Shown here piece after piece: positions 2,609 to 51,297 of a stretch of 64,000 nt of DNA (the first letter of the stretch is position 1; each line of letters opens with the position of its first letter). The notes below the pieces were generated by a model, which worked only from the letters and a program-made list of their open reading frames with translations, was not told the DNA's origin and did not search any database. A program made the translations under genes and the position numbers. The stretch is taken from positions 8,015-72,014 of the forward strand of contig CBDCJB010000004.1 of NCBI GenBank assembly GCA_965217605.1. The letters run 5' to 3'. Source of the DNA: Gammaproteobacteria bacterium (GTDB lineage: Bacteria > Pseudomonadota > Gammaproteobacteria > Ga0077536).

Positions 2609-3715
2609 ATGAGCAACGGCGACCTGAACTGGATCGCGAACTACATCTGGGGCATCGCCGCCGACGTCCTGCGCGACCTCTACGTGCGCGGCAAGTACCG
2701 CGACGTGATCCTGCCCATGACCGTGCTGCGCCGCCTCGACGCGGTGCTGGAGGGCAGCAAGCAGGCGGTCCTCGACATGAAGGCCGCCCTCGATGACGCC
2801 GGCGTGGTCGAGCAGGACGCCGCCCTGCGCCAGGCGGCGGGGCAGGCGTTCTACAACACCTCCCGCTTCACCCTGAGCGACCTGCGCGCCCGCGCCAACC
2901 GCCAGCAGCTCACCGCCGACTTCCAAGCGTACCTCGACGGGTTCTCGCCGAACGTGCAGGACATCCTGGACAACTTCGAGTTCCGCAACCAGATCCAGCG
3001 CCTGTCCCGCGCCGACGCCCTGGGCACCCTGATCGAGAAGCTCACCTCGCCCGACATCAACCTGAGCCCCGCCCCGGTGCATCACGCCGACGGCTCGGTC
3101 AAGCATCCCGGCCTCGACAACCACGGCATGGGCACGATCTTCGAGGAGCTGGTGCGCCGCTTCAACAAGGAGAACAACGAGGAGGCGGGAGAGCACTGGA
3201 CCCCGCGTGACGCGGTCCGGCTGATGGCGAAGCTGGTCTTCCTGCCCATCGCCGACCGGATCAGCTCCGGCACCTATCTGCTGTACGACGGCGCCTGCGG
3301 CACCGGCGGCATGCTGACCGTGGCCGAGGAGACGCTGCGACAGCTCGCCGCCGAGCACGGCAAGGAGGTCGCCACCCACCTGTGCGGACAGGAGATCAAC
3401 GCCGAGACCTACGCCATCTGCAAGGCCGACCTGCTGCTGAAAGGCGAGGGCGAGGCCGCCGACAACATCGTGGGCGGCCCCGAGCACTTCACGCTGTCCA
3501 ACGACGCCTTCCCGTCGCGCGAGTTCGACTTTATGCTGTCCAATCCGCCCTACGGCAAGAGCTGGAAGACCGACCTGGAGCGCATGGGCGGCAAGCGCGA
3601 CATGCGCGACCCCCGTTTCGTGATCGAGCACGCCGGCGACCCCGAGTACTCCCTGGTGACCCGCTCCACCGATATCGTGACAGACGGTCCGAAGGAGGTT
3701 GAACATGACGAGTGA
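2609..3715 (+). pseudogene. hsdM: Type I restriction-modification methyltransferase HsdM, copy 1, 3'-truncated (HsdM_N domain, motif I DGACGTGG, motif IV NPPYGKSW, then ends after ...TRSTD)
   Basis: N-terminus MSNGDLNWIANYIWG...VLPMTVLRRLD is typical of the HsdM N-terminal domain. The gamma-class N6-adenine MTase motifs are present, but only ~55 aa follow NPPY, so the C-terminal part is missing. Confidence 0.8.
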
Positions 3716-3887
3716 CGAAGTAAAACGGTTCGATTGTGTCAGGACCATGAGAGCTATTCGCGACCAAATCAGCGCCGAGATTGCTGAAAAGAGCTTCGCC
3801 GAGCTGTCCCACTGGCTCGATACGCACGGTTACGCGGATCCTGCGCTGCAACGGTTGGCGGAGCGACGCGGCCAACGGAACCCATGA
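3705..3887 (+). CDS. small conserved protein (60 aa, MTSDEVKRFDCVRTMRAIRDQ...WLDTHGYADPALQRLAERRG); first gene of cassette A
   Basis: GGAGG RBS 6 nt upstream of the ATG. Its stop overlaps the ATPase start as ATGA. A homolog sits at the same relative position after hsdM copy 2. Confidence 0.5.
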   Translation: MTSDEVKRFDCVRTMRAIRDQISAEIAEKSFAELSHWLDTHGYADPALQRLAERRGQRNP

Positions 3888-5137
3888 TCACACGCGTCGA
3901 GGCGCTCAATTTCCGCTGTCTGCGGTACGTGCACCGTCCGATGAACCCGTTCCACGTATTGGTCGGCCCGAACGCATCCGGCAAGACGACGTTCCTGGAC
4001 GTCATCGGGCTCCTGGGTGACATCGTGTCAGGCGGGCTGGATTACGCCCTGTCCGAGCGCACACCCAACCCGCAGGATCTGCTGTTCGGACGCCGCGGCA
4101 GCCGACTCGAACTTGCGGTGGAGGCGACCGTGCCCGACGCCCTTCGCCAACCCGATGCGCAGCAGTGGAACACGGTTCGCTATCAGGTGGCGCTCGGTTA
4201 CGATGACACCGACCGCCAGTTTGAGTTCAAGGCTGAGACGCTGCTGTTGAAGAAGGCCACCGAATCCGGGCCGAGTCAGCGCGAATTGTTCCCGACGCCG
4301 CCGGTGCCGCCCGAGTCGCTGTTGGACAGCATCAAGCAGCGCGACAACAAGGTGTTGGTCAACAAGGCGTCGGGCGGCAACGACAACTTCTACAACGAGT
4401 CCAGCCCCGCAAACCGAAGTTGGGCGCCGTCGTTCAAACTCGGAACGCAGCGGTCGGCGCTGGGCAACCTTCCGGCCGACCAAAGCTCGTTTCCGACGGC
4501 GACGTGGTTTCGGGAGTACCTTGGCGCCGGCATTCAGCGGTTCACCCTCAACAGTGCCGCGATCCGGCAGCCGAGTCCGCCGACGCGGGCCGCCGGATTC
4601 CTGCCCGACGGGTCCAACGTCTCCTGGGTCGCCGGCCGCCTCCGGCAAGACGACCCCGCGCGCCACGCTGCGTGGATCGCGCATCTGCGCACGGCGCTGC
4701 CCGACCTGGAAGACATTGAGGCGGTGGAGCGGCCCGAAGACCGCCATTGTTATATGGTGTACCGGTATGTTGGCGGCTTGTCCGTGCCGTCCTGGCTGGT
4801 CTCCGATGGCACGCTCAGGTTGACCGGTCTCACGCTGCCGGCCTATCTGCCCGATCTGGAAGGTGTCTTCCTGGTTGAGGAGCCGGAAAACGGCATCCAC
4901 CCGAAGGCGGTGGCCACGGTGTTCGATTCGCTGTCCTCGGTGTATGGCGCTCAGGTGTTGATGGCGACCCACTCACCGGTCGTGCTCAACGCGGCGAATA
5001 CGGAAGACGTGCTGTGCTTCGCGCGCGACGATGCGGGTGCGACCGACGTCGTCTCTGGTACCGAACATCCTCACCTGCAAGCTTGGCGGGGCGATGCGGA
5101 CCTCGGCACCCTGCTTGCGGCCGGCGTACTGGGATGA
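3884..5137 (+). CDS. AAA_15/AAA_21-type ABC ATPase (OLD/RloA/AbiLi-like): Walker A GPNASGKTT, Walker B VFLVEEPENGIHP, H-loop ATHSP
   Basis: Motifs were read directly from the translation. The gene is translationally coupled to both neighbours through ATGA overlaps. Confidence 0.8.
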   Translation: MITRVEALNFRCLRYVHRPMNPFHVLVGPNASGKTTFLDVIGLLGDIVSGGLDYALSERTPNPQDLLFGRRGSRLELAVEATVPDALRQPDAQQWNTVRYQVALGYDDTDRQFEFKAETLLLKKATESGPSQRELFPTPPVPPESLLDSIKQRDNKVLVNKASGGNDNFYNESSPANRSWAPSFKLGTQRSALGNLPADQSSFPTATWFREYLGAGIQRFTLNSAAIRQPSPPTRAAGFLPDGSNVSWVAGRLRQDDPARHAAWIAHLRTALPDLEDIEAVERPEDRHCYMVYRYVGGLSVPSWLVSDGTLRLTGLTLPAYLPDLEGVFLVEEPENGIHPKAVATVFDSLSSVYGAQVLMATHSPVVLNAANTEDVLCFARDDAGATDVVSGTEHPHLQAWRGDADLGTLLAAGVLG

Positions 5138-5583
5138 CCCGCCGGGACCTCGTGGTCCTTGCCGCCGACAAGGACTTGGAACACGCGTTGCGCGGGTTGC
5201 TGTCCCGTCACGAGTCGCTGCCCATCCGGCAGATCGTGTTCGATATCTTCGTACACCCCGAGCATGACGCCGCTTGTGCGAGGCGTGGCGTTTCGTTCCT
5301 CTCCCCGCTTTCCCAGCGGTACCGATACGCACTGCTGATCATGGATCACGAAGGCAGTGGCCGCGAGAAGATATCAGCAGATGACTTGCAGGAAGCGCTG
5401 AATCAAGAATTTCGGGTATCCGCATGGGGCGAGCGGGGCAAGGCAATCGTCCTGGACCCGGAGCTGGAGATCTGGGTCTGGAGCGACTCCCCACACGTCG
5501 ACGCCGTGGCCGGTTGGGCAGATAGAAGGCCGCGGCTGCGCCAGTGGCTGAACGATCATGGTCTGTGGGATGACCAAGAGTAG
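5134..5583 (+). CDS. small partner protein of the AAA ATPase (149 aa), DUF4276/RloB-like
   Basis: Start overlaps the ATPase stop (ATGA). Its size and position match the two-gene ATPase + DUF4276/RloB modules found in R-M-linked and abortive-infection loci. The family assignment is from memory, not from a search. Confidence 0.5.
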   Translation: MTRRDLVVLAADKDLEHALRGLLSRHESLPIRQIVFDIFVHPEHDAACARRGVSFLSPLSQRYRYALLIMDHEGSGREKISADDLQEALNQEFRVSAWGERGKAIVLDPELEIWVWSDSPHVDAVAGWADRRPRLRQWLNDHGLWDDQE

Positions 5584-5721
5584 AAACCACGGCGGCCAAA
5601 GGAGGCGTTTCATGCCGCCCTGCATGCGTCGGGTGTGGCGCGCAGCGCATCGCTCTACCAACAGCTCGCCGAACGAGTATCCCTCAACCGGTGCGGCGAT
5701 CGTTCCTGAATCAGCGCCAAC

Positions 5722-6378
5722 ATGAGCAAAGGCGACCTCAACTGGATCGCGAACTACATCTGGGGCTTTGCCGACGATGTCCTCCGCGACCTCTACGTGC
5801 GCGGGAAGTACCGCGACGTGATCCTGCCCATGACCGTGCTGCGCCGCCTCGACGCGGTGCTGGAGGGCAGCAAGCAGGCGGTCCTGGACATGAAGGCCAC
5901 CCTCGACGACGCCGCCGTGGTCGAGCAGGACGCCGCCCTGCGCCAGGCGGCTGGGCAGGCGTTCTACAACACCTCCCGCTTCACCCTGAGCGACCTGCGA
6001 GCCCGCGCCAACCGCCAGCAGCTCACCGCCGACTTCCAGGCGTACCTCGACGGGTTCTTCCCCAACGTGCAGGACATCCTCGACAACTTCGAGTTCCGCA
6101 ACCAGATCCCGCGCCTGTCCCGTGCCGACGCCCTGGGCACCCTGATCGAGAAGCTCACCGCACCCGACATCAACCTGAGCCCCACCCCGGTGCACCCCGC
6201 CGAGGGCTCGGTCAAGCATCCCGGCCTCGACGACCACGGCATGGGGACGATCTTCGAGGAGCTGGTGCGCCGCTTCAACGAGGAGAACAACGAGGAGGCG
6301 GGCGAGCACTGCGCCCCGCGCGACGCGGTCCGACTGACTGATGCCAGTGACGTACCGGCTCCGATACGAGGGAGGTAG
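5722..6378 (+). pseudogene. hsdM: hsdM copy 2, truncated after ~205 aa (HsdM_N domain only)
   Basis: ~93% nucleotide identity to copy 1 from 15 bp upstream of the ATG. It diverges at ...EHCAPRDAVRL and then reads into the RBS of the next small gene. Confidence 0.8.
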
Positions 6379-6382
6379 GAAC

Positions 6383-6685
6383 ATGACGACCACGCGAGAG
6401 AAGAAAGGATTCGACTGCGTGAAGACCACGCGCGAGATTCGTGATGGCCTCAGTGTCGAGTTGGCCGGGATGTCCCCTGAGGACCGGATCCGGTGGCTCA
6501 ATAGCAGGGGTTTCTCGGACCCGCTCCTGCGCCGCCTCGTCAATCGGCTGCGGCCACAGGAAGGTCGAGAGGGCGAGTCCGCTCTGGTGCGCTCGACCGG
6601 CAGCCCCTTGCCCCGACGCGATTCCGTCCGCCGCCCGCCAGGAAGCGAACGATCACGACCACGGAGGACTGACGGCATATCGTGA
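6383..6685 (+). CDS. small protein homologous to 3705-3887 (MTTTREKKGFDCVKTTREIRDGLSVELAGMSPEDRIRWLNSRGFSDPLLRRL...), with a longer Arg/Pro-rich tail
   Basis: GGAGGGAGG RBS. ~40% aa identity to the cassette-A small protein over the first 60 aa (shared KxFDCVxTxRxIRD...WL...G..DP.L.RL pattern). Confidence 0.45.
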   Translation: MTTTREKKGFDCVKTTREIRDGLSVELAGMSPEDRIRWLNSRGFSDPLLRRLVNRLRPQEGREGESALVRSTGSPLPRRDSVRRPPGSERSRPRRTDGIS

Positions 6686-6719
6686 AGCCCGCAAGGAAGA
6701 CGAAGTGACAACTGCCAAC

Positions 6720-7040
6720 TCAATCCCTCTTCCACCAAGAAGCCAAGTCGTACTGGTTCTGCAGGTCCAGCCAGAAGCGAGGGCTGTTGCCAAAGTAACG
6801 GCCAAGCCGCAGCGCCGTGTCAGCGGTGATCGACCGGCGTCCGTTCAGGATGTCGGTGATGCGACCGGACGGAACGCCAAGGTCAAGTGCCAGTCTGTTG
6901 GCCCTCAGGCGGCGGGCTTCGAGCTCGCGCTTGAGCAATCGGCCAGGATGCGAAGTCGGATCCACTTTCGTAACCTCCCTACATACCACGAGGCCCGGTG
7001 AACACCGTAACCCATCAGCGGCAGGCAGCCGGTTGACCAA
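6720..7040 (-). CDS. higA: HigA-family (XRE-type HTH) antitoxin-like protein; TTG start in the ORF track, true start possibly at the internal VTKVD
   Basis: ...HPGRLLKRELEARRLRANRLALDLGVPSGRITDILNGRRSITADTALRLGRYFGNSPRFWLDLQNQYDL matches the HigA antidote signature. No intact HigB partner upstream. Confidence 0.7.
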   Translation of the reverse strand: MVNRLPAADGLRCSPGLVVCREVTKVDPTSHPGRLLKRELEARRLRANRLALDLGVPSGRITDILNGRRSITADTALRLGRYFGNSPRFWLDLQNQYDLASWWKRD

Positions 7041-7176
7041 CCAGCCAGCCGCCCCCGCCGGTCGTAGAAGATGGCAGGTTGAAACGAACTACGCGGCGTG
7101 TGCGTGTGCACGGACGGGCCGCAGCCGCGGTTGCTGTCGGTCCGCGGTCTGGACACGGGGGCGGCCACCGAATTGA

Positions 7177-8037
7177 ATGAGCGCCAACATGAGCAACGGC
7201 GACCTGAACTGGATCGCGAACTACATCTGGGGCATCGCCGACGACGTCCTGCGCGATCTGTACGTGCGCGGCAAGTACCGCGACGTGATCCTGCCCATGA
7301 CCGTGCTGCGCCGCCTCGACGCGGTGCTGGAGGGCAGCAAGCAGGCCGTCCTCGACATGAAGGCCACCCTCGACGATGCCGGCGTGGTCGAGCAGGACCC
7401 CGCCCTGCGCCAGGCGGCGGGACAGGCGTTCTATAACATCTCCGGATTCACCCTCCGCGACCTGCGCGCCCGCGCCAACCGCCAGCAGCTCACTGCCGAC
7501 TTCCAGGCATACCTCGACGGGTTCTCGCCCAACGTGCAGGACATCCTCGAAAACTTCGAGTTCCGCAACCAGATCCCGCGCCTGTCCCGCGCTGACGCCC
7601 TGGGCACCCTGATCGAGAAGCTCACCTCGCCGGACATCAACCTGAGCCCCGCCCCGGTGCACCACGCCGACGGCTCGGTCAAGCATCCCGGCCTCGACAA
7701 CCACGGCATGGGCACGATCTTCGAGGAGCTGGTGCGCCGCTTCAACGAGGAGAACAACGAGGAGGCGGGCGAGCACTGGACGCCGCGCGACGCCGTCCGG
7801 CTGATGGCGAAGCTGGTCTTCCTGCCGATCGCCGACCAGGTCAGGTCCGGCACCTACCTGCTGTACGACGGCGCCTGCGGCACCGGCGGCATGCTGACCG
7901 TGGCCGAGGAGACCCTGCGGCAGCTCGCCCGCGAGCACGGCAAGGAGGTCGCCACCCACCTGTACGGCCAGGACATCAACGCCGAGAGCGCGGCCACCAT
8001 CTGTTGGAGCTGTACGATGGGCTTGAAGCGACGATAA
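7177..8037 (+). pseudogene. hsdM: hsdM copy 3, truncated after ~265 aa (HsdM_N + motif I), then unrelated sequence
   Basis: ~95% aa identity to copy 1 up to ...HLYGQDINAES (~7985), then divergence and a stop. Confidence 0.8.
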
Positions 8038-8306
8038 AAGCCGAGGCGCAGCAGTCGATTTCCGAGTTGCCGCCCTTGGGCGCGCCGAGTTGGATTGGCG
8101 AGGATCCGGACATTCGAGCATTGATAAGACAAGGAAACTCGAATTTTTCTGATTGGAGATATCTGCCCGAAAGACCACGTGTCGAGAGCGGTGTACCAAA
8201 GGTGCTGGTCAACGTCGTACAGGTGATGCAGAAGCTTTGTCTCAAGCGCGTTTTGCAATCTCCGGATGTCGCGAATGAAAAGCAAGATGGCGGAGAGTCC
8301 CCCTAG
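8004..8306 (+). CDS. gene fragment or short ORF of unknown origin, directly fused downstream of hsdM copy 3
   Basis: Open frame (TTG start) from the copy-3 junction. It is lower GC than hsdM and has no recognizable domain. Confidence 0.2.
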   Translation: MELYDGLEATIKAEAQQSISELPPLGAPSWIGEDPDIRALIRQGNSNFSDWRYLPERPRVESGVPKVLVNVVQVMQKLCLKRVLQSPDVANEKQDGGESP

Positions 8307-8384
8307 TACCGGATCATTTGGCGGACATGGCGGTCGCCTTCGAGTGCGAGCCGTTTTCCACGCCCGCCTCGCCTTGCTCACGGT

Positions 8385-9686
8385 TCAGTCTCGATCGGGG
8401 CAGTCACGGTAGAAGTTCATGAGAGGTTCAAAGAGGTCCAACGTACGGGTGGACAGATACATGAACTGCAGTTCACGACTGTCTAGATCGACGTTACCAC
8501 GGGGCACGTGAAAAACGGACTTGCGAAGAGACTTGAGCGCTGCAAAATCGGGCTCGGACTCTATGAAAGCATCCAGTGCCGGGATTCGCAACGACGGCGC
8601 CTTTTTCATGGCCTGCTTATACAGCCTCAGCGGCTCATGTAACAATGCGAGGGTCACGCCCAGCAACGCTTGTTGGTTGTGATGCTCCTGTTCCGTTTTT
8701 GGAATGGTGTCGGCACGAAAGAACTGTTCGATATCGATTGACGTATCCTTGGATGGATCAACAGGACAGGCAAGTAACTTCTCAGGATCAATGTAGGAAG
8801 TGAATTCGTTATAGAATGCCAGTGCGCGCATGATCATCTGGACGCAACCCCGTTTTGCTTGTCTTATGCTGTCCGGGTAAAGCGTTCCGCGTCGACCGGA
8901 GTCGTTTGTTGCTGATGATTGTGAGGACCGTATTGGCTCCAGCGCGAAGAATTGAATTTGACTGGGGTTGCCGCGCAGATCCGAGGGATTGGGCCAGTGC
9001 GGCAATGGTCGATGGCAAATCCCTTTGGCGATTCGGTTGAGCTTCTCGATTCGACTGAAGCGTCTTGACTCCAGAGCCCTGCTAGCGATTTCCTTATCGC
9101 CTTCGGTAATGAAGTACGAGCCCATCGAATACCAGAATCTGACAGTATGGGCATCTATCAGGAATTGTGCGTCGAAAATCAGTTTTGTCAGGGCTTCGCG
9201 CTGTCGGTCCTCAGAAGAAAAGATTCCGTCGAGAGCGTCCTGGAATGAAGTGCGGTTTTGGGGGTGAAGTACGCTATCTCTCAACTCTCGCAAGTGCGCC
9301 AAGAAATCCTTGTTGCAGTTCAAGAAATCGGCCAGGGGTGCGTATCTGAAGTTGGAATTCCGCTTAACCAATCTCCTGTATGCCTCCAGTTCTTCGTGCA
9401 GCAGACACAGGTAGACGTCCAAGAGGCTGTCGATGAATATGCGGTGCATGTCGCGGCAGATGCCGGTGAGGTCCGCTTCTATGACTGACCTCGAATGTGT
9501 GGTGTATTTTTGACTGAACAGACCGACCGCTCCGGGGTCGATGATGGAGTTCGAGTCAGTCTCTTCCGAACTTCCCAGGTTGCGCAGGACGGCGTGGCGG
9601 ACGCCTTCGAGGACAAGGCATCGATGGTAGTGGATGTTGCAGCAGTGGTGCACTGCAATGGTTTCGGATTTCTTGTCGACGGGCAT
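8385..9686 (-). CDS. hypothetical protein (433 aa), lower GC. An overlapping upstream ORF (9556-10056) in another frame may be a 5' extension across a frameshift
   Basis: Long ORF with protein-like composition. I recognise no domain. Confidence 0.5.
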   Translation of the reverse strand: MPVDKKSETIAVHHCCNIHYHRCLVLEGVRHAVLRNLGSSEETDSNSIIDPGAVGLFSQKYTTHSRSVIEADLTGICRDMHRIFIDSLLDVYLCLLHEELEAYRRLVKRNSNFRYAPLADFLNCNKDFLAHLRELRDSVLHPQNRTSFQDALDGIFSSEDRQREALTKLIFDAQFLIDAHTVRFWYSMGSYFITEGDKEIASRALESRRFSRIEKLNRIAKGICHRPLPHWPNPSDLRGNPSQIQFFALEPIRSSQSSATNDSGRRGTLYPDSIRQAKRGCVQMIMRALAFYNEFTSYIDPEKLLACPVDPSKDTSIDIEQFFRADTIPKTEQEHHNQQALLGVTLALLHEPLRLYKQAMKKAPSLRIPALDAFIESEPDFAALKSLRKSVFHVPRGNVDLDSRELQFMYLSTRTLDLFEPLMNFYRDCPDRD

Positions 9687-10221
9687 GAAGTTCGAGCGCC
9701 GTAACAGGTCGATCTTTTCGTCGATATTTATGAGATGAACCGGTCATGTTGGGCGGGGTAGAACCGCAGGTCCAAAGATGAAGCTCGTCGACTCCGCGTG
9801 TGTCTGGTGGAGCGTCGCCGCTGCTGTGGGATGTGGGGGTTTTTGGGTTTGTCGATTTGAAATCCGGGACGGGCAGCGCTGCCTGTGAGAAAGATGAGTT
9901 GTCTAAGCTCGATGCTCGTCTCGTCAGGAATCCCAGGCTGCCTGGGGTGCTGTTGAACCACGCGCACAGTGCCTTCGGGATGTCCAGTGGTGTTGTGTCA
10001 TGCTGGATTGGCACCCACATTGAACCCACCGTCTGCTCTTTGCTGAGGATTGCCAACAGCTTACCGGAGTCCGTCCTAAACTTCGTGGGAGTGTTAGAAA
10101 TTCTGTGTCAATCCTTTAATCTAAGCGGAAAGGGGATTGAATCATGGCAGAGGAATTTGATTTTGAAGCCGCCCTGAAGGCAGTGCAATCAGGGCAATCG
10201 ATTACCGGCAAAGACGGTGTG

Positions 10222-11841
10222 CTAGCCCGGATATTTCATAAAAAAAGAGGGCAAGCCCTTTCTAATCCGTTATAATTCAGTTAGTTAGGCTGAAAACGGA
10301 AAGGACTCGCCCGTGACAGAATGTACCCAGACTGCGCTGCAATTTCCAGGCTTTTCTCGCCGCAAGATCGACGTCTCATTCAACGGCGGTGACATCACTT
10401 CCAACGGTGGGGTGCAGTTGCTGCGCTGGGCCGATGAACGGACCGGGTTGATCAAGGCCGCGGCACGGGCCATTGGGGATTCGCGCCGGAGAAAGAGCTG
10501 CACCCACGCTCTGGAGTCGCTGGTCCGACAGCGGGTCTATGGCCTTTCCCTGGGCTATGAGGACCTCAACGACCACGAGGCATTGCGCGCGGACTTGGCT
10601 CTGCAGACGGCGCTTTCCCGGGATGAGTCGCTGGCGAGCCCGTCGACGTTGTGCCGACTGGAGAACCGCGCGAACCGGAACACCGCGGTGGCCCTGCACA
10701 AGGGACTCATTGATAACTTTATCGCCGCTTACAAACAAGCGCCCCGACGACTGATACGCGATGTGGATGCCACCGACGATCGGGTGCAGGGTGATCAAGC
10801 GGGCCGCTTCTTCCACGGCGACTACGACCACGACTGCTGTCTGCCCTTGTACGTGTTCTGTGGCGATCAACGGTTGGTCAGTTATCTGCGTTCGAGCAAG
10901 ATCGACGGCGCAAAACACAGTGGGGCGATCTTGGCGCTGTTGATCAAACGGTTGCGCCAGGCGTGGCCGAAGGTCGAGATCCTGGTGCGCGCCGATGCCG
11001 GCTTTTGCCGCTGGCGGATGCTGCGCTGGTTCGATCGCCACGGCGTGGATTACGTCATGGGTATCGCGAAAAACCCGCGTTTGCACGATCAATCGTTAGC
11101 GTTGCGCACGTTGGCTCAGTGGCGGTATTGGATGATGGGTGAGAAGCAGCGCCTGTTCAGCGAGGTCCGTTACGCCGCACCGACTTGGGATACCCCGCGA
11201 CGGGTGATCGTCAAGGCCGAGCACAGCGCCCGCGGCAGCAATCCCCGCTTCGTGGTGACCCACCTCACCGGCAAGGCCCAACGCATCTACGACCGCCTCT
11301 ACTGCGCCCGCGGCGAGATGGAGAACCGGATCAAGGAGCAGCAGTTGGGCCTGTTTGCCGATCGCACCAGTTGCCACACCTGGTGGGCCAATCAGTTCCG
11401 GCTGTTGCTCTCAAGCTTGGCTTACACGCTGTTGGAGACGATCCGCCGGGTGGCACTACACGCAACGGCACGGGCTCGCGCGCAAGGCGGCACGCTGCGC
11501 CTGAAACTATTACGCATCGGCGCCATCGTCTTGCGCAATACCAGGCGCATCCGACTGTTGCTCTCCAGTGCTTACCCCCATCGAGAACTGTTCTGCCTGG
11601 TGGCCGCTCGCCTCAAGCCGGGATAGTCGTCCCAACGCCAGTCGCCTCGTGTGCGATTCCTTGTGAGTCGGGGTGTCGCTCGCCTCCGAAACGACTCGTG
11701 CATCGCAATCGGCGATAAATCCACCGGTGGCGCGCCGAAACGTCGCGCTCAAGCGCCGCTTCGTGCCACCACCAACGAATTCCGACCCATGATCGACCAA
11801 CTCCACGCACAATCTCACTGCTCATGCAATATCCGGGCTAG
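10222..11841 (+). mobile_element. IS1380/IS4-superfamily-like insertion sequence, copy A (1612-bp core flanked by CTAG on both sides; termini CCCGGATATT(T/G)CAT)
   Basis: Identical to copies at 16467-18086 and 48237-49808. All three are flanked by CTAG, so a 4-bp CTAG target duplication. It interrupts the IS256 tnp ORF in frame (GV|LGPLVK). Confidence 0.85.
10313..11626 (+). CDS. DDE transposase (437 aa) of the IS1380-like element
   Basis: GTG start. The C-terminal YCARGEMENRIKEQQLGLFADRTSCHTWWANQFRLLLSSLAYTL block is typical of IS4-superfamily (IS1380/IS701-like) transposases. Confidence 0.85.
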   Translation: MTECTQTALQFPGFSRRKIDVSFNGGDITSNGGVQLLRWADERTGLIKAAARAIGDSRRRKSCTHALESLVRQRVYGLSLGYEDLNDHEALRADLALQTALSRDESLASPSTLCRLENRANRNTAVALHKGLIDNFIAAYKQAPRRLIRDVDATDDRVQGDQAGRFFHGDYDHDCCLPLYVFCGDQRLVSYLRSSKIDGAKHSGAILALLIKRLRQAWPKVEILVRADAGFCRWRMLRWFDRHGVDYVMGIAKNPRLHDQSLALRTLAQWRYWMMGEKQRLFSEVRYAAPTWDTPRRVIVKAEHSARGSNPRFVVTHLTGKAQRIYDRLYCARGEMENRIKEQQLGLFADRTSCHTWWANQFRLLLSSLAYTLLETIRRVALHATARARAQGGTLRLKLLRIGAIVLRNTRRIRLLLSSAYPHRELFCLVAARLKPG

Positions 11842-12308: not shown

Positions 12309-13801
12309 ATGTATTCTGTGGATTTATACAGCCGGGTGCGGCGTGCGTGCCATGTTGAAGGGATGAGCAAGAGCGCGGCGGCGCGCCAGTTTGGGATCGA
12401 TCGCAAGACAGTCGCGAAGATGCTGGAGCACGCGGTTGCGCCTGGATACCGCCGGACGGGCCCTCCGGTGCGGCCCAAGCTTGACCCGTTCATTCCGATC
12501 ATCGACCAGATCCTCGAAGAGGACAAAGGCCGGCTGAAGAAGCAACGGCACACCGCGAAGCGGATCTTCGAGCGCCTGCGGGACGAACACGGCTTCACCG
12601 GTGGGGTCACGTCACGGATTACGTACGTGTGAAGAAGCGCCAGATCGGGAGGTCTTCGTGCCGCTGACGCACGCGCCGGGCCATGCCCAGGTGGACTTCG
12701 GCGAGGCGCTTGGTGTGATCGGCGGCGTGCAGCGCAAGCTGCACTATGTTGCGATGGTAGTGCCGCAGTCGGATGCCTTCTTCATCAAAGCGTATCCTGC
12801 CGAGACGGCCGAAGCTTTCTGCGACGGGCATGTCTCGGCGGTTGCGTTTTTTGGCGGTGTGCCGCTATCGGTACTCTACGACAACACCACCATCGCGGTT
12901 GCGAAGATCCTTGGCGACGGTACTCGCAAGCGCACCAGCGTTTTTTCCGAGTTGCAGTCGCACGACCTGTTCGAGGATCGGTTCGGCCGGCCGGGCAAGG
13001 GCAACGACAAGGGGTCGGTGGAGGGGGTGATCGGCTTTGCCCGGCGGAACTTCCTGGTCCCGATGCCCCGCTTCGAGAGCTTCGAGGCGCTGAATGCTTG
13101 GCTGGAGGTACAGTGCCTCAAGCGCCAGAGCGAGGTGCTGCGCGGGCACAGCGAGATGATCGGCGAACGCTTACTGCACGACCTGGATGCCCTGATGGCG
13201 TTACCAGCCGTCTGCTACGACGCTTGCGAGAGAGTCAGCACCCGGGCCACGTCGATCTCGATGGTGCGCGACCGCGGCAGCGACGACTCGGTGCCAGTCG
13301 CCTACGCCCATCACGAGGTTCAGGTTCGAGGCTATGTCGACAAGGTCGTCATCGGCTGCGGAGCTGAGGTGGTCGCGCGGCACCGCCGATCCTACGAGAA
13401 GGCTGACATGGTCTTCGATCCTATGCACTTCCTGCCGCTCCTGGAGCAGAAGGTCGGCGCACTCGACGGCCTGGCCGTTGCAGGGCTGGGCGTTGCCCGG
13501 GGAGTTCGCCACGCTGCGCCGGTTGCTCGAGGCGCGGATGGATAAGCGGGGCAAACGCGAATACGTTCAGGTGCTTCGGCTTCTCGAGACCTTCGAAATG
13601 GACCCTGTCCAAGGCGCCGTCAGGCCGGCGCTCGATCGCGGTGCGATCGGCTACGACGCAGTCAAACACCTGGTGCTGTGCCGGGTTGAGCGGCGCCCGC
13701 CGCGGCTCGATCTCGACATCTATCCCGACCTGCCCCGAGCAAGAGTAGAAACCACGAAGCCGGCCAGCTACATGAGCCTGATGCCGGGAGCGGCGGTATG
13801 A
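12309..13801 (+). pseudogene. istA: IS21 transposase IstA, at least two frameshifts (segments 12309-12632, 12601-13545, 13334-13801)
   Basis: HTH N-terminus, DDE core and C-terminus appear in three different frames. Confidence 0.8.
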
Positions 13802-14550
13802 GTGACACACCACAAGTGCTGCTGCACCACCACCTCAAGAAGCTCCGCCTGCCCACCTTCCACAGCGAATACGCCAAACTTGCCCGGCCATGTGCGGCCG
13901 AGGGCAACGATCACGTGCAGTATCTTCTCCGGCTCTGCGAACTGGAGCTGATCGAGCGCGAGCGGCGGATGGTCGAACGGCGCATTAAAGCCGCGAAGTT
14001 CCCGGCAACAAAGAGCCTGGATAGCTTCGACTTCAAGGCCATCCCGTCGCTCAACAAGGCACTGACGATGGAACTGGCCCGCTGCGAGTTCGTCAATCGG
14101 CGTGAGAACGTCATCGCCCTGGGCCCGAGCGGCACCGGCAAGACCCACGTTGCCCTCGGCCTGGGACTGGCAGCCTGCCAGAAGGGTCTGAAGGTCTGCT
14201 TCACAATCGCGGCTGCACTTGTGCACGAACTGATCGAAGCCGCAGACGCGCGCCGCCTGCAGCGCCTTCACAAGCAGCTTGCCAGCCAGGATCTGCTCAT
14301 CATCGATGAACTCGGCTTCGTACCTCTGTCAAAGACGGGGGCCGAACTGCTCTTCGAGATCATCTCCCAGAGCTACGAACGCGGCTCGATCATCATCACG
14401 TCCAACCTGCCGTTCGACGAATGGACCGAGGTCTTCGGATCGGAACGCCTCACAGGCGCCATTCTCGACCGCCTGACACACCACGTACACATCCTCGAAA
14501 TGAACGGCGAGAGCTTCCGGATGCGCCAAAGCCGCAAGACCAGAACCTGA
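13798..14550 (+). CDS. istB: IS21 helper ATPase IstB (Walker A GPSGTGKTH)
   Basis: Full-length, canonical IstB sequence. Start overlaps the istA end. Confidence 0.9.
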   Translation: MSDTPQVLLHHHLKKLRLPTFHSEYAKLARPCAAEGNDHVQYLLRLCELELIERERRMVERRIKAAKFPATKSLDSFDFKAIPSLNKALTMELARCEFVNRRENVIALGPSGTGKTHVALGLGLAACQKGLKVCFTIAAALVHELIEAADARRLQRLHKQLASQDLLIIDELGFVPLSKTGAELLFEIISQSYERGSIIITSNLPFDEWTEVFGSERLTGAILDRLTHHVHILEMNGESFRMRQSRKTRT

Positions 14551-16466: not shown

Positions 16467-18086
16467 CTAGCCCGGATATTTCATAAAAAAAGAGGGCAAG
16501 CCCTTTCTAATCCGTTATAATTCAGTTAGTTAGGCTGAAAACGGAAAGGACTCGCCCGTGACAGAATGTACCCAGACTGCGCTGCAATTTCCAGGCTTTT
16601 CTCGCCGCAAGATCGACGTCTCATTCAACGGCGGTGACATCACTTCCAACGGTGGGGTGCAGTTGCTGCGCTGGGCCGATGAACGGACCGGGTTGATCAA
16701 GGCCGCGGCACGGGCCATTGGGGATTCGCGCCGGAGAAAGAGCTGCACCCACGCTCTGGAGTCGCTGGTCCGACAGCGGGTCTATGGCCTTTCCCTGGGC
16801 TATGAGGACCTCAACGACCACGAGGCATTGCGCGCGGACTTGGCTCTGCAGACGGCGCTTTCCCGGGATGCGTCGCTGGCGAGCCCGTCGACGTTGTGCC
16901 GACTGGAGAACCGCGCGAACCGGAACACCGCGGTGGCCCTGCACAAGGGACTCATTGATAACTTTATCGCCGCTTACAAACAAGCGCCCCGACGACTGAT
17001 ACGCGATGTGGATGCCACCGACGATCGGGTGCAGGGTGATCAAGCGGGCCGCTTCTTCCACGGCGACTACGACCACGACTGCTGTCTGCCCTTGTACGTG
17101 TTCTGTGGCGATCAACGGTTGGTCAGTTATCTGCGTTCGAGCAAGATCGACGGCGCAAAACACAGTGGGGCGATCTTGGCGCTGTTGATCAAACGGTTGC
17201 GCCAGGCGTGGCCGAAGGTCGAGATCCTGGTGCGCGCCGATGCCGGCTTTTGCCGCTGGCGGATGCTGCGCTGGTTCGATCGCCACGGCGTGGATTACGT
17301 CATGGGTATCGCGAAAAACCCGCGTTTGCACGATCAATCGTTAGCGTTGCGCACGTTGGCTCAGTGGCGGTATTGGATGATGGGTGAGAAGCAGCGCCTG
17401 TTCAGCGAGGTCCGTTACGCCGCACCGACTTGGGATACCCCGCGACGGGTGATCGTCAAGGCCGAGCACAGCGCCCGCGGCAGCAATCCCCGCTTCGTGG
17501 TGACCCACCTCACCGGCAAGGCCCAACGCATCTACGACCGCCTCTACTGCGCCCGCGGCGAGATGGAGAACCGGATCAAGGAGCAGCAGTTGGGCCTGTT
17601 TGCCGATCGCACCAGTTGCCACACCTGGTGGGCCAATCAGTTCCGGCTGTTGCTCTCAAGCTTGGCTTACACGCTGTTGGAGACGATCCGCCGGGTGGCA
17701 CTACACGCAACGGCACGGGCTCGCGCGCAAGGCGGCACGCTGCGCCTGAAACTATTACGCATCGGCGCCATCGTCTTGCGCAATACCAGGCGCATCCGAC
17801 TGTTGCTCTCCAGTGCTTACCCCCATCGAGAACTGTTCTGCCTGGTGGCCGCTCGCCTCAAGCCGGGATAGTCGTCCCAACGCCAGTCGCCTCGTGTGCG
17901 ATTCCTTGTGAGTCGGGGTGTCGCTCGCCTCCGAAACGACTCGTGCATCGCAATCGGCGATAAATCCACCGGTGGCGCGCCGAAACGTCGTGCTCAAGCG
18001 CCGCTTCGTGCCACCACCAACGAATTCCGACCCATGATCGACCAACTCCATGCACAATCTCACTGCTCATGCAATATCCGGGCTAG
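16467..18086 (+). mobile_element. IS1380-like IS, copy B (identical length to copy A, CTAG flanks)
   Basis: Sequence identity with 10222-11841 through both termini. Confidence 0.85.
16558..17871 (+). CDS. DDE transposase of IS1380-like copy B (437 aa)
   Basis: Near-identical to 10313-11626. Confidence 0.85.
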   Translation: MTECTQTALQFPGFSRRKIDVSFNGGDITSNGGVQLLRWADERTGLIKAAARAIGDSRRRKSCTHALESLVRQRVYGLSLGYEDLNDHEALRADLALQTALSRDASLASPSTLCRLENRANRNTAVALHKGLIDNFIAAYKQAPRRLIRDVDATDDRVQGDQAGRFFHGDYDHDCCLPLYVFCGDQRLVSYLRSSKIDGAKHSGAILALLIKRLRQAWPKVEILVRADAGFCRWRMLRWFDRHGVDYVMGIAKNPRLHDQSLALRTLAQWRYWMMGEKQRLFSEVRYAAPTWDTPRRVIVKAEHSARGSNPRFVVTHLTGKAQRIYDRLYCARGEMENRIKEQQLGLFADRTSCHTWWANQFRLLLSSLAYTLLETIRRVALHATARARAQGGTLRLKLLRIGAIVLRNTRRIRLLLSSAYPHRELFCLVAARLKPG

Positions 18087-23518: not shown

Positions 23519-23783
23519 ATGTCCCGCCGAACGAAATTGACTCGCGAACGGATCGAGACGCTGGCCGGATATGTGGCGAACGGCTGCACGAACCGCGACG
23601 CGGCGCGACTGAGCGGGATCGCGGAATCCACCCTTTACCATTGGCTTGGCATTGCACGAGAGCATGAGCACGAGGGGCGGACCCGGACGCTGCCGGTTCA
23701 ACTGGCGCGCGCTGGAAGAAGCCGAGGCCGGATTCCGCCGAGCGCAGCTTGAGGTTATCCGGCGGGCGGCGTCGGAATCGACT
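23519..23783 (+). pseudogene. phage-related HTH protein fragment (terminase small subunit-like: MSRRTKLTRERIETLAGYVANGCTNRDAARLSGIAESTLYHWL...), frameshifted and 3'-truncated by IS3
   Basis: HTH pattern typical of small terminase or Nu1-like N-termini. The coding sequence runs into the truncated IS3 copy at ~23784. Confidence 0.3.
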
Positions 23784-24472
23784 GTTCAGCGCCAACGTGA
23801 TCAGGCGGTCTCGCACGGTATCGGGGATCCGGTTCCACACCCGCCCCGGCAGGGGCGCTTGGTCCTGCAGCGCCACTTCTCCGTCATGACGATAGTGTGC
23901 GTACCAACGGTAGAAGGTGGTGCGTGGAACGCCCAACATAGCCAGGGTTTGCTTGGCCGGCAGGTGCGATCGCTCCACCAACCGAATGATCTCAAGCTTC
24001 TCGGCGGCTGAATACCTCATTGCAGGTCGTCCCCATCCCCGAGCCTGTTTTTTTTGAGCAGCCGCAGTTCCAGCGTTTGCTCGGCGACCACTTCCTTGAG
24101 ATCTCGGGCGTCACGCCGAAGCGCCGTGACGTCACTGGTGTTGGCCTGGCGAACAAGGTCCCCGGCCAGGCGCTGCTTGCCGGCTTCCATGAAGTCCTTG
24201 GACCCTTTGTAATATAGGCTTTGAGCAATACCTTCTCGTCGGCACAGCTCCGCCATGCTGGCTTCGCCACGCACGCCGTCCACTACGATGCGTATTTTCT
24301 CCTCCGCACTGGTTTGCTTGCGCGTGTTGCGCTTGATGTCACGAATGATTTTTTCTAACGACGACGTTCGTCCTGTCGGTCTCTGTTTCATCTCAACTCC
24401 TCAGGTTAGGATGAACAAAAACTCTCCCTTAAACCAGCGCTATATCTGTCCCATAGGCGCTGACGGCATACA
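23784..24472 (-). mobile_element. IS3-family element, copy 1, truncated: orfA plus the first ~80 codons of orfB; left terminus TGTATGCCGTCAGCGCC (RC) at 24472
   Basis: Identical to the complete copy at 49809-51378 down to position 23784. Confidence 0.8.
24017..24391 (-). CDS. IS3-family transposase OrfA (HTH)
   Basis: MKQRPTGRTSS...EEKIRIVVDGVRGEASMAELCRREGIAQSLYYKG... ATGA overlap with orfB. Confidence 0.85.
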   Translation of the reverse strand: MKQRPTGRTSSLEKIIRDIKRNTRKQTSAEEKIRIVVDGVRGEASMAELCRREGIAQSLYYKGSKDFMEAGKQRLAGDLVRQANTSDVTALRRDARDLKEVVAEQTLELRLLKKNRLGDGDDLQ

Positions 24473-48236: not shown

Positions 48237-49808
48237 CTAGCCCGGATATTTCATAAAAAAAGAGGGCAAGCCCTTTCTAATCCGTTATAATTCAGTTAGT
48301 TAGGCTGAAAACGGAAAGGACTCGCCCGTGACAGAATGTACCCAGACTGCGCTGCAATTTCCAGGCTTTTCTCGCCGCAAGATCGACGTCTCATTCAACG
48401 GCGGTGACATCACTTCCAACGGTGGGGTGCAGTTGCTGCGCTGGGCCGATGAACGGACCGGGTTGATCAAGGCCGCGGCACGGGCCATTGGGGATTCTCG
48501 CCGGAGAAAGAGCTGCACCTACGCTCTGGAGTCGCTGGTCCGACAGCGGGTCTATGGCCTTTCCCTGGGCTATGAGGACCTCAACGACCACGAGGCATTG
48601 CGCGCGGACTTGGCTCTGCAGACGGCGCTTTCCCGGGATGAGTCGCTGGCGAGCCCGTCGACGTTGTGCCGACTGGAGAACCGCGCGAACCGGAACACCG
48701 CGGTGGCCCTGCACAAGGTACTCATCGATGTGGATGCCACGGACGATCGGGTGCATGGTGATCAAGCGGGCCGCTTCTTCCACGGCTACTACGACCACTA
48801 CTGCTGTCTGCCCTTGTACGTGTTCTGTGGCGATCAACGGTTGGTCAGTTATCTGCGTTCGAGCAAGATCGACGGCGCAAAACACAGTGGGGCGATCTTG
48901 GCGCTGTTGATCAAACGGTTGCGCCAGGCGTGGCCGAAGGTCGAGATCCTGGTGCGCGCCGATGCCGGCTTTTGCCGCTGGCGGATGCTGCGCTGGTTCG
49001 ATCGCCACGGCGTGGATTACGTCATGGGTATCGCGAAAAACCCGCGTTTGCACGATCAATCGTTAGCGTTGCGCACGTTGGCTCAGTGGCGGTATTGGAT
49101 GATGGGTGAGAAGCAGCGCCTGTTCAGCGAGGTCCGTTACGCCGCACCGACTTGGGATACCCCGCGACGGGTGATCGTCAAGGCCGAGCATAGCGCCCGC
49201 GGCAGCAATCCCCGCTTCGTGGTGACCCACCTCACCGGCAAGGCCCAACGCATCTACGACCGCCTCTACTGCGCCCGCGGCGAGATGGAGAACCGGATCA
49301 AGGAGCAGCAGTTGGGCCTGTTTGCCGATCGCACCAGTTGCCACACCTGGTGGGCCAATCAGTTCCGGCTGTTGCTCTCAAGCTTGGCTTACACGCTGTT
49401 GGAGACGATCCGCCGGGTGGCACTACACGGAACGGCACGGGCTCGCGCGCAAGGCGGCACGCTGCGCCTGAAACTATTACGCATCGGCGCCATCGTCTTG
49501 CGCAATACCAGGCGCATCCGACTGTTGCTCTCCAGTGCTTACCCCAATCGAGAACTGTTCTGCCTGGTGGCCGCTCGCCTCAAGCCGGGATAGTCGTCCC
49601 AACGCCAGTCGCCTCGTGTTCGATTCCTTGTGAGTCGGGGTGTCGCTCGCCTCCGAAACGACTCGTGCATCGCAATCGGCGATAAATCCACCGGTGGCGC
49701 GCCGAAACGTCGCGCTCAAGCGCCGCTTCGTGCCACCACCAACGAATTCCGACCCATGATCGACCAACTCCACGCCCAATCTCACTGCTCATGCAATATC
49801 CGGGCTAG
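48237..49808 (+). mobile_element. IS1380-like IS, copy C, with a 48-bp in-frame internal deletion; CTAG flanks
   Basis: Same termini as copies A and B. The transposase is 421 instead of 437 aa and lacks GLIDNFIAAYKQAPRRLIRD. Confidence 0.85.
48328..49593 (+). CDS. DDE transposase of IS1380-like copy C (421 aa, internal 16-aa deletion)
   Basis: Alignment to copies A and B. Confidence 0.8.
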   Translation: MTECTQTALQFPGFSRRKIDVSFNGGDITSNGGVQLLRWADERTGLIKAAARAIGDSRRRKSCTYALESLVRQRVYGLSLGYEDLNDHEALRADLALQTALSRDESLASPSTLCRLENRANRNTAVALHKVLIDVDATDDRVHGDQAGRFFHGYYDHYCCLPLYVFCGDQRLVSYLRSSKIDGAKHSGAILALLIKRLRQAWPKVEILVRADAGFCRWRMLRWFDRHGVDYVMGIAKNPRLHDQSLALRTLAQWRYWMMGEKQRLFSEVRYAAPTWDTPRRVIVKAEHSARGSNPRFVVTHLTGKAQRIYDRLYCARGEMENRIKEQQLGLFADRTSCHTWWANQFRLLLSSLAYTLLETIRRVALHGTARARAQGGTLRLKLLRIGAIVLRNTRRIRLLLSSAYPNRELFCLVAARLKPG

Positions 49809-49945: not shown

Positions 49946-50926
49946 TTACGCAGCGTGTCGTTGATAGTGCAAACGACGTTTCGCGATAGTCTTTCGTTTG
50001 ATCCTTTCTCGTTTTGCCAAAATAGATTGCCCGCGCCCGAAGTAAACGTCGGCTGGCGTCAGGTTTTTCAAGCGCTCATGGGTTCGCTGATGATTGTAGT
50101 GATCGACGAACCGCTCGATCTGCTGTTTCAGATCGCCGGGCAAGAAGTCATTCTCCAGTAGTATCCGGTTCTTCAGCGTCTGGTGCCAGCGTTCGATCTT
50201 GCCTTGTGTCTGCGGATGGTACGGTGCACCGCGAACGTGGCTCATCCCATTGTCGCTGAGCCAATCAGCAAGGTCGCTCGAGAGGTAACTTGAGCCATTG
50301 TCGGAGAGTAATCTCGGCTTTTGCACGACGTCGGCCTGGTCGCAACCCGAGGCCTGCAAGGCAAGTTCCAGGGTCTCGGCCACATCCCGGCTGGTCATGG
50401 TCGTACACAGCTTCCAGGCCACGACATAGCGTGAAAAGTCATCCCGTATCGTGGATAGAACCATCCAGCCCCAGCCAATGATCTTCAGGTAGGTAAAATC
50501 CGTCTGCCACTGCTGATTGATGGCCGTGGTCTTGTCTGTGAACTCGCTGGCGGCCTTCATGACGATGAAGGCCGGACTGGTGATCAGAGCGTGGGCTTTG
50601 AGAAGCCGGTAAACCGAGCTTTCCGAGACAAAATAGCCCTCGGTATCGGTGAAGGTAACCGCCAACTCGCGCGGACTCAGTTCCGGCCTGTTCAGCGCCA
50701 ACGTGATCAGGCGGTCTCGCACGGTATCGGGGATCCGGTTCCACACCCGCCCCGGCAGGGGCGCTTGGTCCTGCAGCGCCACTTCTCCGTCATGACGATA
50801 GTGTGCGTACCAACGGTAGAAGGTGGTGCGTGGAACGCCCAACATAGCCAGGGTTTGCTTGGCCGGCAGGTGCGATCGCTCCACCAACCGAATGATCTCA
50901 AGCTTCTCGGCGGCTGAATACCTCAT
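49946..50926 (-). CDS. IS3-family transposase OrfB (DDE integrase core, 326 aa)
   Basis: DFTYLK...LLSDNGSSYLS...YHPQTQGKIERWHQTLK. Confidence 0.9.
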   Translation of the reverse strand: MRYSAAEKLEIIRLVERSHLPAKQTLAMLGVPRTTFYRWYAHYRHDGEVALQDQAPLPGRVWNRIPDTVRDRLITLALNRPELSPRELAVTFTDTEGYFVSESSVYRLLKAHALITSPAFIVMKAASEFTDKTTAINQQWQTDFTYLKIIGWGWMVLSTIRDDFSRYVVAWKLCTTMTSRDVAETLELALQASGCDQADVVQKPRLLSDNGSSYLSSDLADWLSDNGMSHVRGAPYHPQTQGKIERWHQTLKNRILLENDFLPGDLKQQIERFVDHYNHQRTHERLKNLTPADVYFGRGQSILAKRERIKRKTIAKRRLHYQRHAA

Positions 50927-51297
50927 TGCAGGTCGTCCCCATCCCCGAGCCTGTTTTTTTTGAGCAGCCGCAGTTCCAGCGTTTGCTCGGCGACCACTTC
51001 CTTGAGATCTCGGGCGTCACGCCGAAGCGCCGTGACGTCACTGGTGTTGGCCTGGCGAACAATGTCCCCGGCCAGGCGCTGCTTGCCGGCTTCCATGAAG
51101 TCCTTGGACCCTTTGTAATACAGGCTTTGAGCAATACCTTCTCGTCGGCACAGCTCCGCCATGCTGGCTTCGCCACGCACGCCGTCCAGTACGATGCGTA
51201 TTTTCTCCTCCGCACTGGTTTGCTTGCGCGTGTTGCGCTTGATGTCACGAATGATTTTTTCTGACGACGACGTTCGTCCTGTCGGTCTCTGTTTCAT
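50923..51297 (-). CDS. IS3-family transposase OrfA
   Basis: One conservative substitution versus 24017-24391. Confidence 0.9.
   Translation of the reverse strand: MKQRPTGRTSSSEKIIRDIKRNTRKQTSAEEKIRIVLDGVRGEASMAELCRREGIAQSLYYKGSKDFMEAGKQRLAGDIVRQANTSDVTALRRDARDLKEVVAEQTLELRLLKKNRLGDGDDLQ

Follow-up and report, generated by a model that had tools for sequence, protein, structure and literature searches.

Two small genes in a decayed type I restriction-modification array as candidate orphaned partners of a PIN nuclease module

We analysed a 64,000-nucleotide stretch of DNA assigned to a Gammaproteobacteria bacterium (assembly GCA_965217605.1, contig CBDCJB010000004.1, positions 8,015 to 72,014 of the forward strand), referred to here as the window, with respect to two small genes, sA and sB, which lie among truncated copies of the type I restriction-modification (R-M) gene hsdM. 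In a preliminary description of the sequence, each was taken to be the leader gene of a cassette inserted in hsdM. We instead favour, with moderate confidence, the reading that sA and sB are orphaned partner genes of a PIN-domain module and candidate antitoxins, left behind in a decayed type I R-M array. The part of the window that contains them is laid out as follows, with lengths in nucleotides (nt) or amino acids (aa) and with RBS denoting a ribosome binding site:

2609-3672, + strand: hsdM 5' fragment, copy 1 (codons 1-355), comprising HsdM_N and the first half of N6_Mtase (Pfam N6_Mtase profile positions 3-150 of 311)
3673-3715, + strand: remnant of a PIN gene 3' end, encoding TDIVTDGPKEVEHDE and a stop codon, in frame with hsdM copy 1; it holds the sA RBS and overlaps the sA start by 11 nt
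3705-3887, + strand: sA, 60 aa from MTSDE, an orphan member of a PIN-partner small-protein family
5707-6337, + strand: hsdM 5' fragment, copy 2 (a leader of approximately 15 nt and codons 1-205), matching only HsdM_N in Pfam
6338-6382, + strand: junction and PIN-tail remnant with the sB RBS; homology to intact PIN 3' ends runs from 6367, 16 nt before the ATG
6383-6685, + strand: sB, 100 aa, the second family member, also an orphan
6705-6742, + strand: hsdS 5' remnant, a GTG start and approximately 12 codons (approximately 38 nt)

sA and sB are homologous, as had been proposed from an amino acid identity of approximately 40%: in a BLASTP comparison the two proteins match with E=1e-14 and 48% identity over 48 aa (42-43% over the full alignment). 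The common pattern FDCV..R.IRD...WL...DP.L.RL is also real, with F9, D10, R16, R19 and P46 each at least 90% conserved in a 77-sequence family alignment. Close homologs number 10 for sA and 59 for sB, all from metagenome assemblies, and a profile search of 1.84 billion cluster representatives recovered a family of 613 clusters at 50% identity (E of 1e-3 or below), almost all members of which are 60-75 aa in length; chance similarity of the two open reading frames (ORFs) is thereby excluded. Each gene has the strong RBS originally described, AAGGAGGT for sA (with 6 nt between its end and the ATG) and GGGAGGTAGG for sB (6370-6379), and each stands directly behind a truncated hsdM copy, the hsdM homology stopping at 3672 and 6337, respectively. 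It was likewise correct that the small genes are far more diverged than the hsdM 5' repeats, the three copies of which (repeat families D4-D6) are 92-95% identical at the nucleotide level. The conserved domain of sB is encoded by 6383-6565 and is followed by a low-complexity, variable C-terminal tail: the native version in locus L003 is 74 aa long and lies between a fused hsdM::PIN gene and hsdS, and the tail of the window copy is extended to bring the protein to 100 aa.

The wider family is tied to a PIN gene. A census was taken by scanning metagenomes with a degenerate DNA motif for FD.V..MR.IRD and scoring 120 loci with purpose-built hidden Markov models, counting from the small genes and using as the denominator the 106 with at least 450 nt of upstream DNA. 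The same PIN family lies directly upstream, on the same strand, in 86 of these 106 cases (81%). All of the full-length PINs in the census (69/69) stand alone, and hsdM, hsdS and hsdR are found in none of the 120 loci. When the gene neighbourhood is checked as the preliminary description suggested, most family members are seen to follow a PIN gene and not a truncated hsdM. In 81 of 83 pairs the small gene starts before the PIN gene has ended, with an overlap of 4-23 nt, and the same adjacency recurs in at least 15 Spirochaetia-type loci. Residues D7, E46, D95 and D108 of the PIN are at least 95% conserved among 64 sequences, and the domain looks catalytic on this basis. Pairwise distances among the PINs track those among the small proteins (r=0.84; 0/999 permutations gave a value as high), and the two are sometimes joined in one polypeptide: PIN::small fusions are found in P0080, P0193, P0200 and a 248-aa protein of L016, and a small::HsdS fusion in P0091. 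A stand-alone 158-aa PIN gene followed by a 67-aa small gene, with no R-M genes nearby, occurs in a Thermoanaerobaculia metagenome-assembled genome (MAG) and in soil contigs. Adjacency, overlap and co-divergence together identify the small protein as the fixed downstream partner of one VapC-like PIN clade.

Loss of the PIN beside a retained small gene is recurrent. Only the last approximately 30 PIN residues are left next to an intact small gene in L033, L049, L092 and L109, which are unrelated metagenome contigs. On another, high-GC metagenome contig (L100, 5769-9810), three PIN-less members lie on one strand, interleaved with DUF2442, DUF4160, DUF433/DUF5615 and BrnA-like genes, so that orphan copies accumulate in islands rich in toxin-antitoxin (TA) genes, outside any R-M context. 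A tblastn search of the PLSDB plasmids gave no match to a family member.

In a genome scan, the close homologs were placed in MAGs labelled Spirochaetia bacterium, with genomes of 6-7.4 Mb; one of these, OZ244929.1 (L006), is 96-97% identical to the window across the locus. Two relatives, L003 and L007, encode a full HsdM of 813-818 aa with a C-terminal PIN domain (RIYVDTSVIGGC..EF ... SWNFKH.VN ... LDIRSP; Pfam PIN, 29.4 bits against a cut-off of 23.6). In both, the sB gene begins inside the hsdM::PIN stop region and is followed by hsdS, DUF433 and hsdR. The intact order, namely hsdM::PIN, small gene, variable genes, hsdS and hsdR, is conserved in more distant members with 40-63% identity to sA (L009-L017, L019, L020, L024, L145 and L146), and in all of these loci, L003 and L007 included, the small gene starts in the stop region of an HsdM::PIN of 808-821 aa. 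The fusion of PIN to HsdM is specific to this Spirochaetia lineage.

These relatives carry further genes of related types. TA-type genes lie between hsdS and hsdR in L003 (11666-11905) and L007 (11914-12465 and 12922-13551), and the genes of this interval comprise DUF433, a DUF5615/Mut7-C-like PIN partner and a second PIN-like ORF with ...TWNCRH.... Tandem modules are seen in L016 (533-5327), where hsdM::PIN is followed by a 77-aa small gene, the gene for the 248-aa PIN::small fusion, a 62-aa small gene, the gene for a 253-aa unknown protein and hsdS. In L020 (8865-12228), hsdR shows the same pattern as hsdM, with a 469-aa hsdR 5' fragment, a DUF6978-DUF1828 pair and then a full 1002-aa hsdR. 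The DUF6978-DUF1828 pair adjoins R-M loci in several relatives (L020; also L005, L009, L010 and L013) and may be another embedded defence candidate.

Comparison with the intact loci indicates how the window junctions are built. Apart from the short remnants listed above (PIN tails and an hsdS start), neither a PIN domain nor hsdS or hsdR could be detected in the window. Residues 1-355 of the L003 HsdM match copy 1 with 94% identity (tblastn), the match ending at 3673, and the hsdM frame upstream of sA passes from ...LVTRS directly into TDIVTDGPKEVEHDE and its stop codon. This tail resembles the C-termini of intact PINs, GVLEIRTPKEVCDD in L145 and GTLEIRTPREMIDDE in L020, each likewise followed by a stop codon; BLASTN homology to the L145 PIN tail begins at 3689. 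The 11-nt overlap with sA falls in a class that is common among PIN/small pairs. At sB, a stretch of 29 nt (6338-6366) separates the end of the hsdM homology from the start of the PIN-tail homology. Downstream, homology to L007 covers sB, the spacer and the hsdS start and runs to 6742; the second supposed cassette consists of the PIN tail, sB and the beginning of hsdS and is free of cargo.

The PIN is gone and the small gene retained in the window and also in L002, L004 and L005. The PIN-less junctions lie approximately 25 nt before the ATG in L004 and L005 and approximately 75 nt before it in L002, and over all events their positions vary (approximately 16, 25, 35 and 75 nt before the ATG). 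The events were independent of one another, and each took away the PIN but left the small gene in place. The insertions in hsdM that the preliminary description saw here are better read as deletions that join the 5' part of hsdM to the last PIN codons. The sA junction is kept, with the ORF intact, in at least four related genomes.

The rearrangement boundaries at 3881, 5707 and 2594-2609 all fall within approximately 0-20 nt of a start codon: homology to the gene downstream of sA begins 3 nt before its ATG, the hsdM repeats begin approximately 15 nt before theirs, and the small genes retain a leader of 16-35 nt. Boundaries of this kind may reflect either selection for expression or a mechanistic hotspot. 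The hsdM 5' fragments may have come to lie in tandem through deletions in tandem operon copies, through illegitimate recombination facilitated by homology, or through Campbell-type integration of circles.

The remaining genes of the locus are these:

3884-5137, + strand: ABC/AAA_21 ATPase cargo, MAD3 / HEC-01A-like (NCBIfam MAD3 equivalog, 488 bits against a cut-off of 420)
5134-5583, + strand: the MAD4-like partner gene of the ATPase, of DUF4276/TOPRIM type (139 bits to NCBIfam MAD4, short of its cut-off of 160)
6720-7040, - strand: higA-like antitoxin gene with a helix-turn-helix (HTH) domain (TIGR02607 HigA, 83 bits)
7177-7987, + strand: hsdM 5' fragment, copy 3, cut at approximately codon 271 by unrelated lower-GC DNA, with no small gene behind it

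The sA stop and the ATPase start overlap as ATGA at 3884-3887. In PADLOC the ATPase matches HEC-01A (5e-36) and also AriA and mad3, and the mad3-mad4-like pair is better described as a HEC-01-like ATPase and a TOPRIM-type partner embedded in a type I R-M operon. The MAD4-like gene is shortened, to 149 aa from the 211 aa seen in L002 and L006: a premature stop stands at 5581-5583, homology continues to 5707, and the 3' end is lost to hsdM copy 2. A 5' fragment of hsdS stands behind the MAD4 gene of L002 and L006, which shows that the ATPase pair had been embedded after the small gene and before hsdS, where embedded defence genes usually sit (Payne et al. 2024).

This cargo and the small genes do not move together. 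The ATPase, which is 96-97% identical at the nucleotide level among the loci that carry it, lies behind sA in the window, L002 and L006 and behind sB in L004 and L005, and its homology begins exactly at 3881 across the sA- and sB-led loci. Conversely, at least four different gene sets are found behind one and the same small protein, P0251. The claim that the small genes had moved with the cassettes therefore fails. Nor are they leaders at the 5' edge of inserted DNA, since intact relatives have them as the last element of the left flank, with the cargo after them. The PIN+small module shows 50-69% nucleotide identity between loci, compared with 75-99% for the hsdM body; the extra divergence belongs to the whole module and not to the small genes alone.

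The higA-like gene is not part of an sB-led cassette either: the same adjacency of a minus-strand higA to hsdM is found upstream of intact hsdM in L002, L006, L008 and L020, which identifies it as the 5' flank of the next hsdM copy. Only approximately 136 nt (7041-7176) separate it from hsdM copy 3, leaving no space for higB, and in this lineage an orphan higA seems to stand regularly on the 5' side of hsdM.

From the gene order and sequence relationships described above, the PIN and the small gene make up a module of two translationally coupled genes with the toxin first. Within it, the small protein would bind and neutralise the PIN nuclease in a role like that of a type II antitoxin. In the Spirochaetia lineage, the PIN is fused to the C-terminus of HsdM, giving an intact operon of hsdM::PIN, small gene, optional defence cargo, hsdS and hsdR. 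Rearrangements in the window would then have removed the 3' half of hsdM and nearly the whole PIN from two operon copies, thereby joining hsdM 5' fragments to the last approximately 5-15 PIN codons and leaving the small genes with their RBS. Orphan antitoxins are a recognised outcome of TA evolution, and sA and sB are probably orphaned antitoxins of such a toxin-first PIN module. Today they could possibly provide immunity against incoming related PIN modules or simply serve as a coupled upstream ORF for the ATPase. Among the roles guessed at in the preliminary description, the evidence favours that of a toxin/antitoxin-like component and speaks against that of a recombination accessory factor or cassette leader.

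The small protein is predicted to adopt a three-helix fold: an AlphaFold2 (AF2) model of sA based on the 77-sequence alignment has a mean predicted local distance difference test (pLDDT) score of 84, with helices at residues 11-27, 31-40 and 46-58. The earlier statement that the proteins contain no recognisable domain stands, none of Pfam, NCBIfam, PADLOC, PDB and Foldseek giving a match, and a PDB sequence search with the stand-alone PIN also returned nothing significant.

Several of these results weigh against an antitoxin role. Neither sA and sB nor 59 diverse members match a family in Pfam, NCBIfam or PADLOC, and hence no known antitoxin family; a PDB search with the small-protein profile gave nothing significant (best E=0.021, to vimentin); and Foldseek searches of the AF2 model found nothing below E=6 in PDB and no hit below E=1 in either PDB or BFVD, and hence no DNA-binding fold. 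The toxin-first gene order is the reverse of that in canonical VapBC systems, and approximately 19% of the family members in the census have no PIN nearby. A single-sequence AF2 prediction of the P0080 PIN::small fusion reached a pLDDT of 36.7. The sB core is basic (isoelectric point 10.2) and its PIN partner mildly acidic, which fits neutralisation and proves nothing. Finally, the ratio of nonsynonymous to synonymous substitution rates (dN/dS) of sA against its orthologs is 0.19-0.84, a noisy range based on few substitutions, and frameshifted sB variants are present in relatives, suggesting that the window copies may be decaying.

Such decay is the substance of one alternative, that the window copies are functionless debris and still open only because the rearrangements are recent. 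The state of the locus lends itself to this explanation: there are three hsdM fragments, a truncated MAD4, a higA without higB and insertion sequence (IS) elements, in addition to the frameshifted relatives of sB, the extension of its tail to 100 aa and the upper sA value of 0.84. Both ORFs are nevertheless intact with strong RBS retained, the sA junction persists with an intact ORF in other genomes, and the dN/dS of the sB core, a value that likewise rests on few substitutions, is 0.09-0.34 even among the PIN-less copies in the window, L002 and L004 (L007 and L008 are excluded from the dN/dS ranges). We regard debris as quite unlikely; it concerns present function only and is compatible with the origin proposed here. 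Least probable, and already largely refuted, is the cassette leader itself, a small gene (leader, regulator or recombination accessory) that comes first in mobile cassettes inserting into hsdM and moves with their cargo. It would explain why both window genes stand at the left edge of non-hsdM DNA, the ATGA coupling of sA to the ATPase and the divergence relative to the hsdM repeats, but it is at odds with the several gene sets behind P0251, with one ATPase behind either sA or sB and a break exactly at the ATPase start, with the preponderance of PIN genes and lack of R-M genes around members in unrelated metagenomes, with the cargo-free sB unit and with a third hsdM break that has no small gene. 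Among the ORFs scanned in the first 10 kb, none showed a Pfam integrase domain (two of these ORFs, 2-2437 and 8385-9686, have no Pfam match at all), attC-like sites not having been specifically searched. An integron-like or other site-specific cassette leader was rejected on the same grounds, namely independent assortment of small gene and cargo, varying junctions and no integrase seen in the first 10 kb.

Two other alternatives accept the link to the PIN or its operon and assign the small protein a different function. It might be a positive cofactor or adaptor, such as a specificity or activation subunit of the PIN or a link between the PIN and the HsdM complex; adjacency, fusion and co-divergence fit any obligate partner, and the toxin-first order and lack of a known antitoxin fold would be in keeping with it. 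Yet the PIN has repeatedly been lost or truncated with the small gene retained, which fits TA decay and is unexpected for a cofactor because a cofactor is useless without its enzyme, and the overlapping, coupled 1:1 arrangement is one typical of TA modules. We therefore hold a cofactor role to be unlikely. Marginally less probable in our estimation is a purely regulatory role, in which the protein would autoregulate the PIN operon, or time the expression of hsdS and cargo in the manner of a controller, without neutralising the PIN by binding. A compact three-helix protein of the kind predicted could bind DNA, the conserved arginines R16 and R19 would suit this, and the gene does lie between hsdM and hsdS in the Spirochaetia loci. 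Against it, no member matches an HTH family above the Pfam cut-off (2 of 59 give one weak match each, HTH_31 at E=0.031 and HTH_22 at E=0.077), and Foldseek finds no HTH neighbour in PDB for the three-helix model, so that the HTH or ribbon-helix-helix (RHH) fold envisaged earlier was not recovered; outside this lineage the family is tied to the PIN and not to R-M, and the existence of PIN::small fusions, like the close co-divergence, suggests that the relationship is one between the two proteins. An R-M controller (C) protein was rejected as a candidate on the absence of an HTH match above cut-off and the occurrence of the family without R-M genes elsewhere.

Elsewhere, the island is heavily invaded by IS elements. 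Three IS copies that are 99-100% identical and encode a DDE_Tnp_1_4 (IS1380-like) transposase lie at 10222-11700, 16467-17950 and 48237-49600, and an IS21-like pair, the first ORF of which has rve and Mu-transposase C-terminal domains, lies at 12309-14550. Direct repeats of 100% identity (families D7 and D8: 23782-24081 / 50688-50987 and 50373-50588 / 51379-51594) are probably more IS or duplicated segments. The DNA that cuts hsdM copy 3 at 7987 is of lower GC content (7988-9700, approximately 52-55%) and has on its minus strand an ORF of 433 aa (8385-9686) for which Pfam, NCBIfam and PADLOC return nothing. An ORF of more than 811 aa (2-2437) lies before hsdM copy 1 and runs off the window start; its only match, to the VPA1262 N-terminal domain, is weak (30.6 bits, where the cut-off is 80).

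Among known systems, the module most resembles VapBC in its parts. Both have a PIN with a conserved acidic site (here D7, E46, D95 and D108), a small, co-directional, overlapping partner gene and co-diverging partners; in both, the toxin gene is often lost and an orphan partner left, and modules occur in defence loci. The differences are that the small gene is downstream of the PIN in all pairs, whereas vapB is upstream of vapC; that the partner belongs to no known VapB class (AbrB/SpoVT, RHH/MetJ-CopG, Phd/YefM or HTH) and has no Pfam or NCBIfam model; that it is a predicted three-helix protein without a detectable DNA-binding domain and with a putative neutralising activity; and that the PIN is covalently fused to HsdM in this lineage. 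Gene order and the lack of a known VapB fold thus argue that the module is not a VapBC member. Toxin-first order in one operon with a small antitoxin gene is shared with HigBA, HicAB, MqsRA and BrnTA, but these have other toxin folds (RelE-like, HicA, MqsR and BrnT) and antitoxins with recognisable HTH, RHH or zinc DNA-binding domains, and we found no similarity of sA or sB to them in sequence or fold. The methylation-associated defence system (MADS, mad1-8) has in common with the window the MAD3 equivalog behind sA and the MAD4-like gene after it; only this mad3-mad4-like pair is present, however, and the hsdM fragments are of type I and not MAD2 (22 bits against a cut-off of 720). sA was rejected as a MADS component: no NCBIfam or PADLOC MADS model matches sA or sB, and the hsdM fragments are not MAD2.

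Coupling of PIN-like TA genes to type I hsdM/hsdS is noted in section 17 of Matelska et al. 2017 (PMC5499597), and PrrC within EcoprrI is among the defence genes that have been described as embedded in R-M operons (Payne et al. 2024, bioRxiv 10.1101/2024.01.29.577857). The present loci share with R-M-embedded TA and abortive infection (Abi) genes a nuclease module between hsdM and hsdS and a variable slot for defence cargo at that position, the cargo here being the HEC-01 / MAD3-MAD4-like ATPase pair. PrrC differs in being an ABC-ATPase anticodon nuclease with no small partner, and the functional link between PIN and R-M is putative here. In the literature searched we found general statements of coupling between PIN TA genes and type I R-M only, and no C-terminal HsdM-PIN fusion with this small partner; in the literature and databases searched there is no record of the small-protein family, of its pairing with this PIN clade in toxin-first order or of the fusion of HsdM to PIN.

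By analogy with PrrC and EcoprrI, HsdM::PIN might act as a guard built into the type I R-M complex, and the small-protein family might be a new class of nuclease inhibitor, a bolder proposal that we consider improbable, if worth stating. The PIN would be tethered to the methylase and restrained by the small protein, possibly also by the intact R-M complex, and a phage anti-restriction protein that disables or dismantles the complex would release the nuclease. The window orphans would then persist as immunity against related PIN modules, or as coupled ORFs driving expression of embedded cargo.

With sA and sB read as orphaned partners of a PIN module, the apparent cassette leaders of the window turn into ordinary orphaned partner genes in a decayed, rearranged type I R-M locus. 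The analysis defines a fairly large, widespread and previously unannotated small-protein family, a candidate new toxin-first TA family, one lineage of which has its PIN fused to HsdM directly before the slot in which embedded defence genes accumulate. Its profile can serve for the annotation of orphan copies and, in these genomes, as a marker of the edge of embedded-defence slots that lies towards hsdM. If it is true that the fusion couples PIN activity to R-M integrity, it would be a second, mechanistically different example of a PrrC-type back-up.

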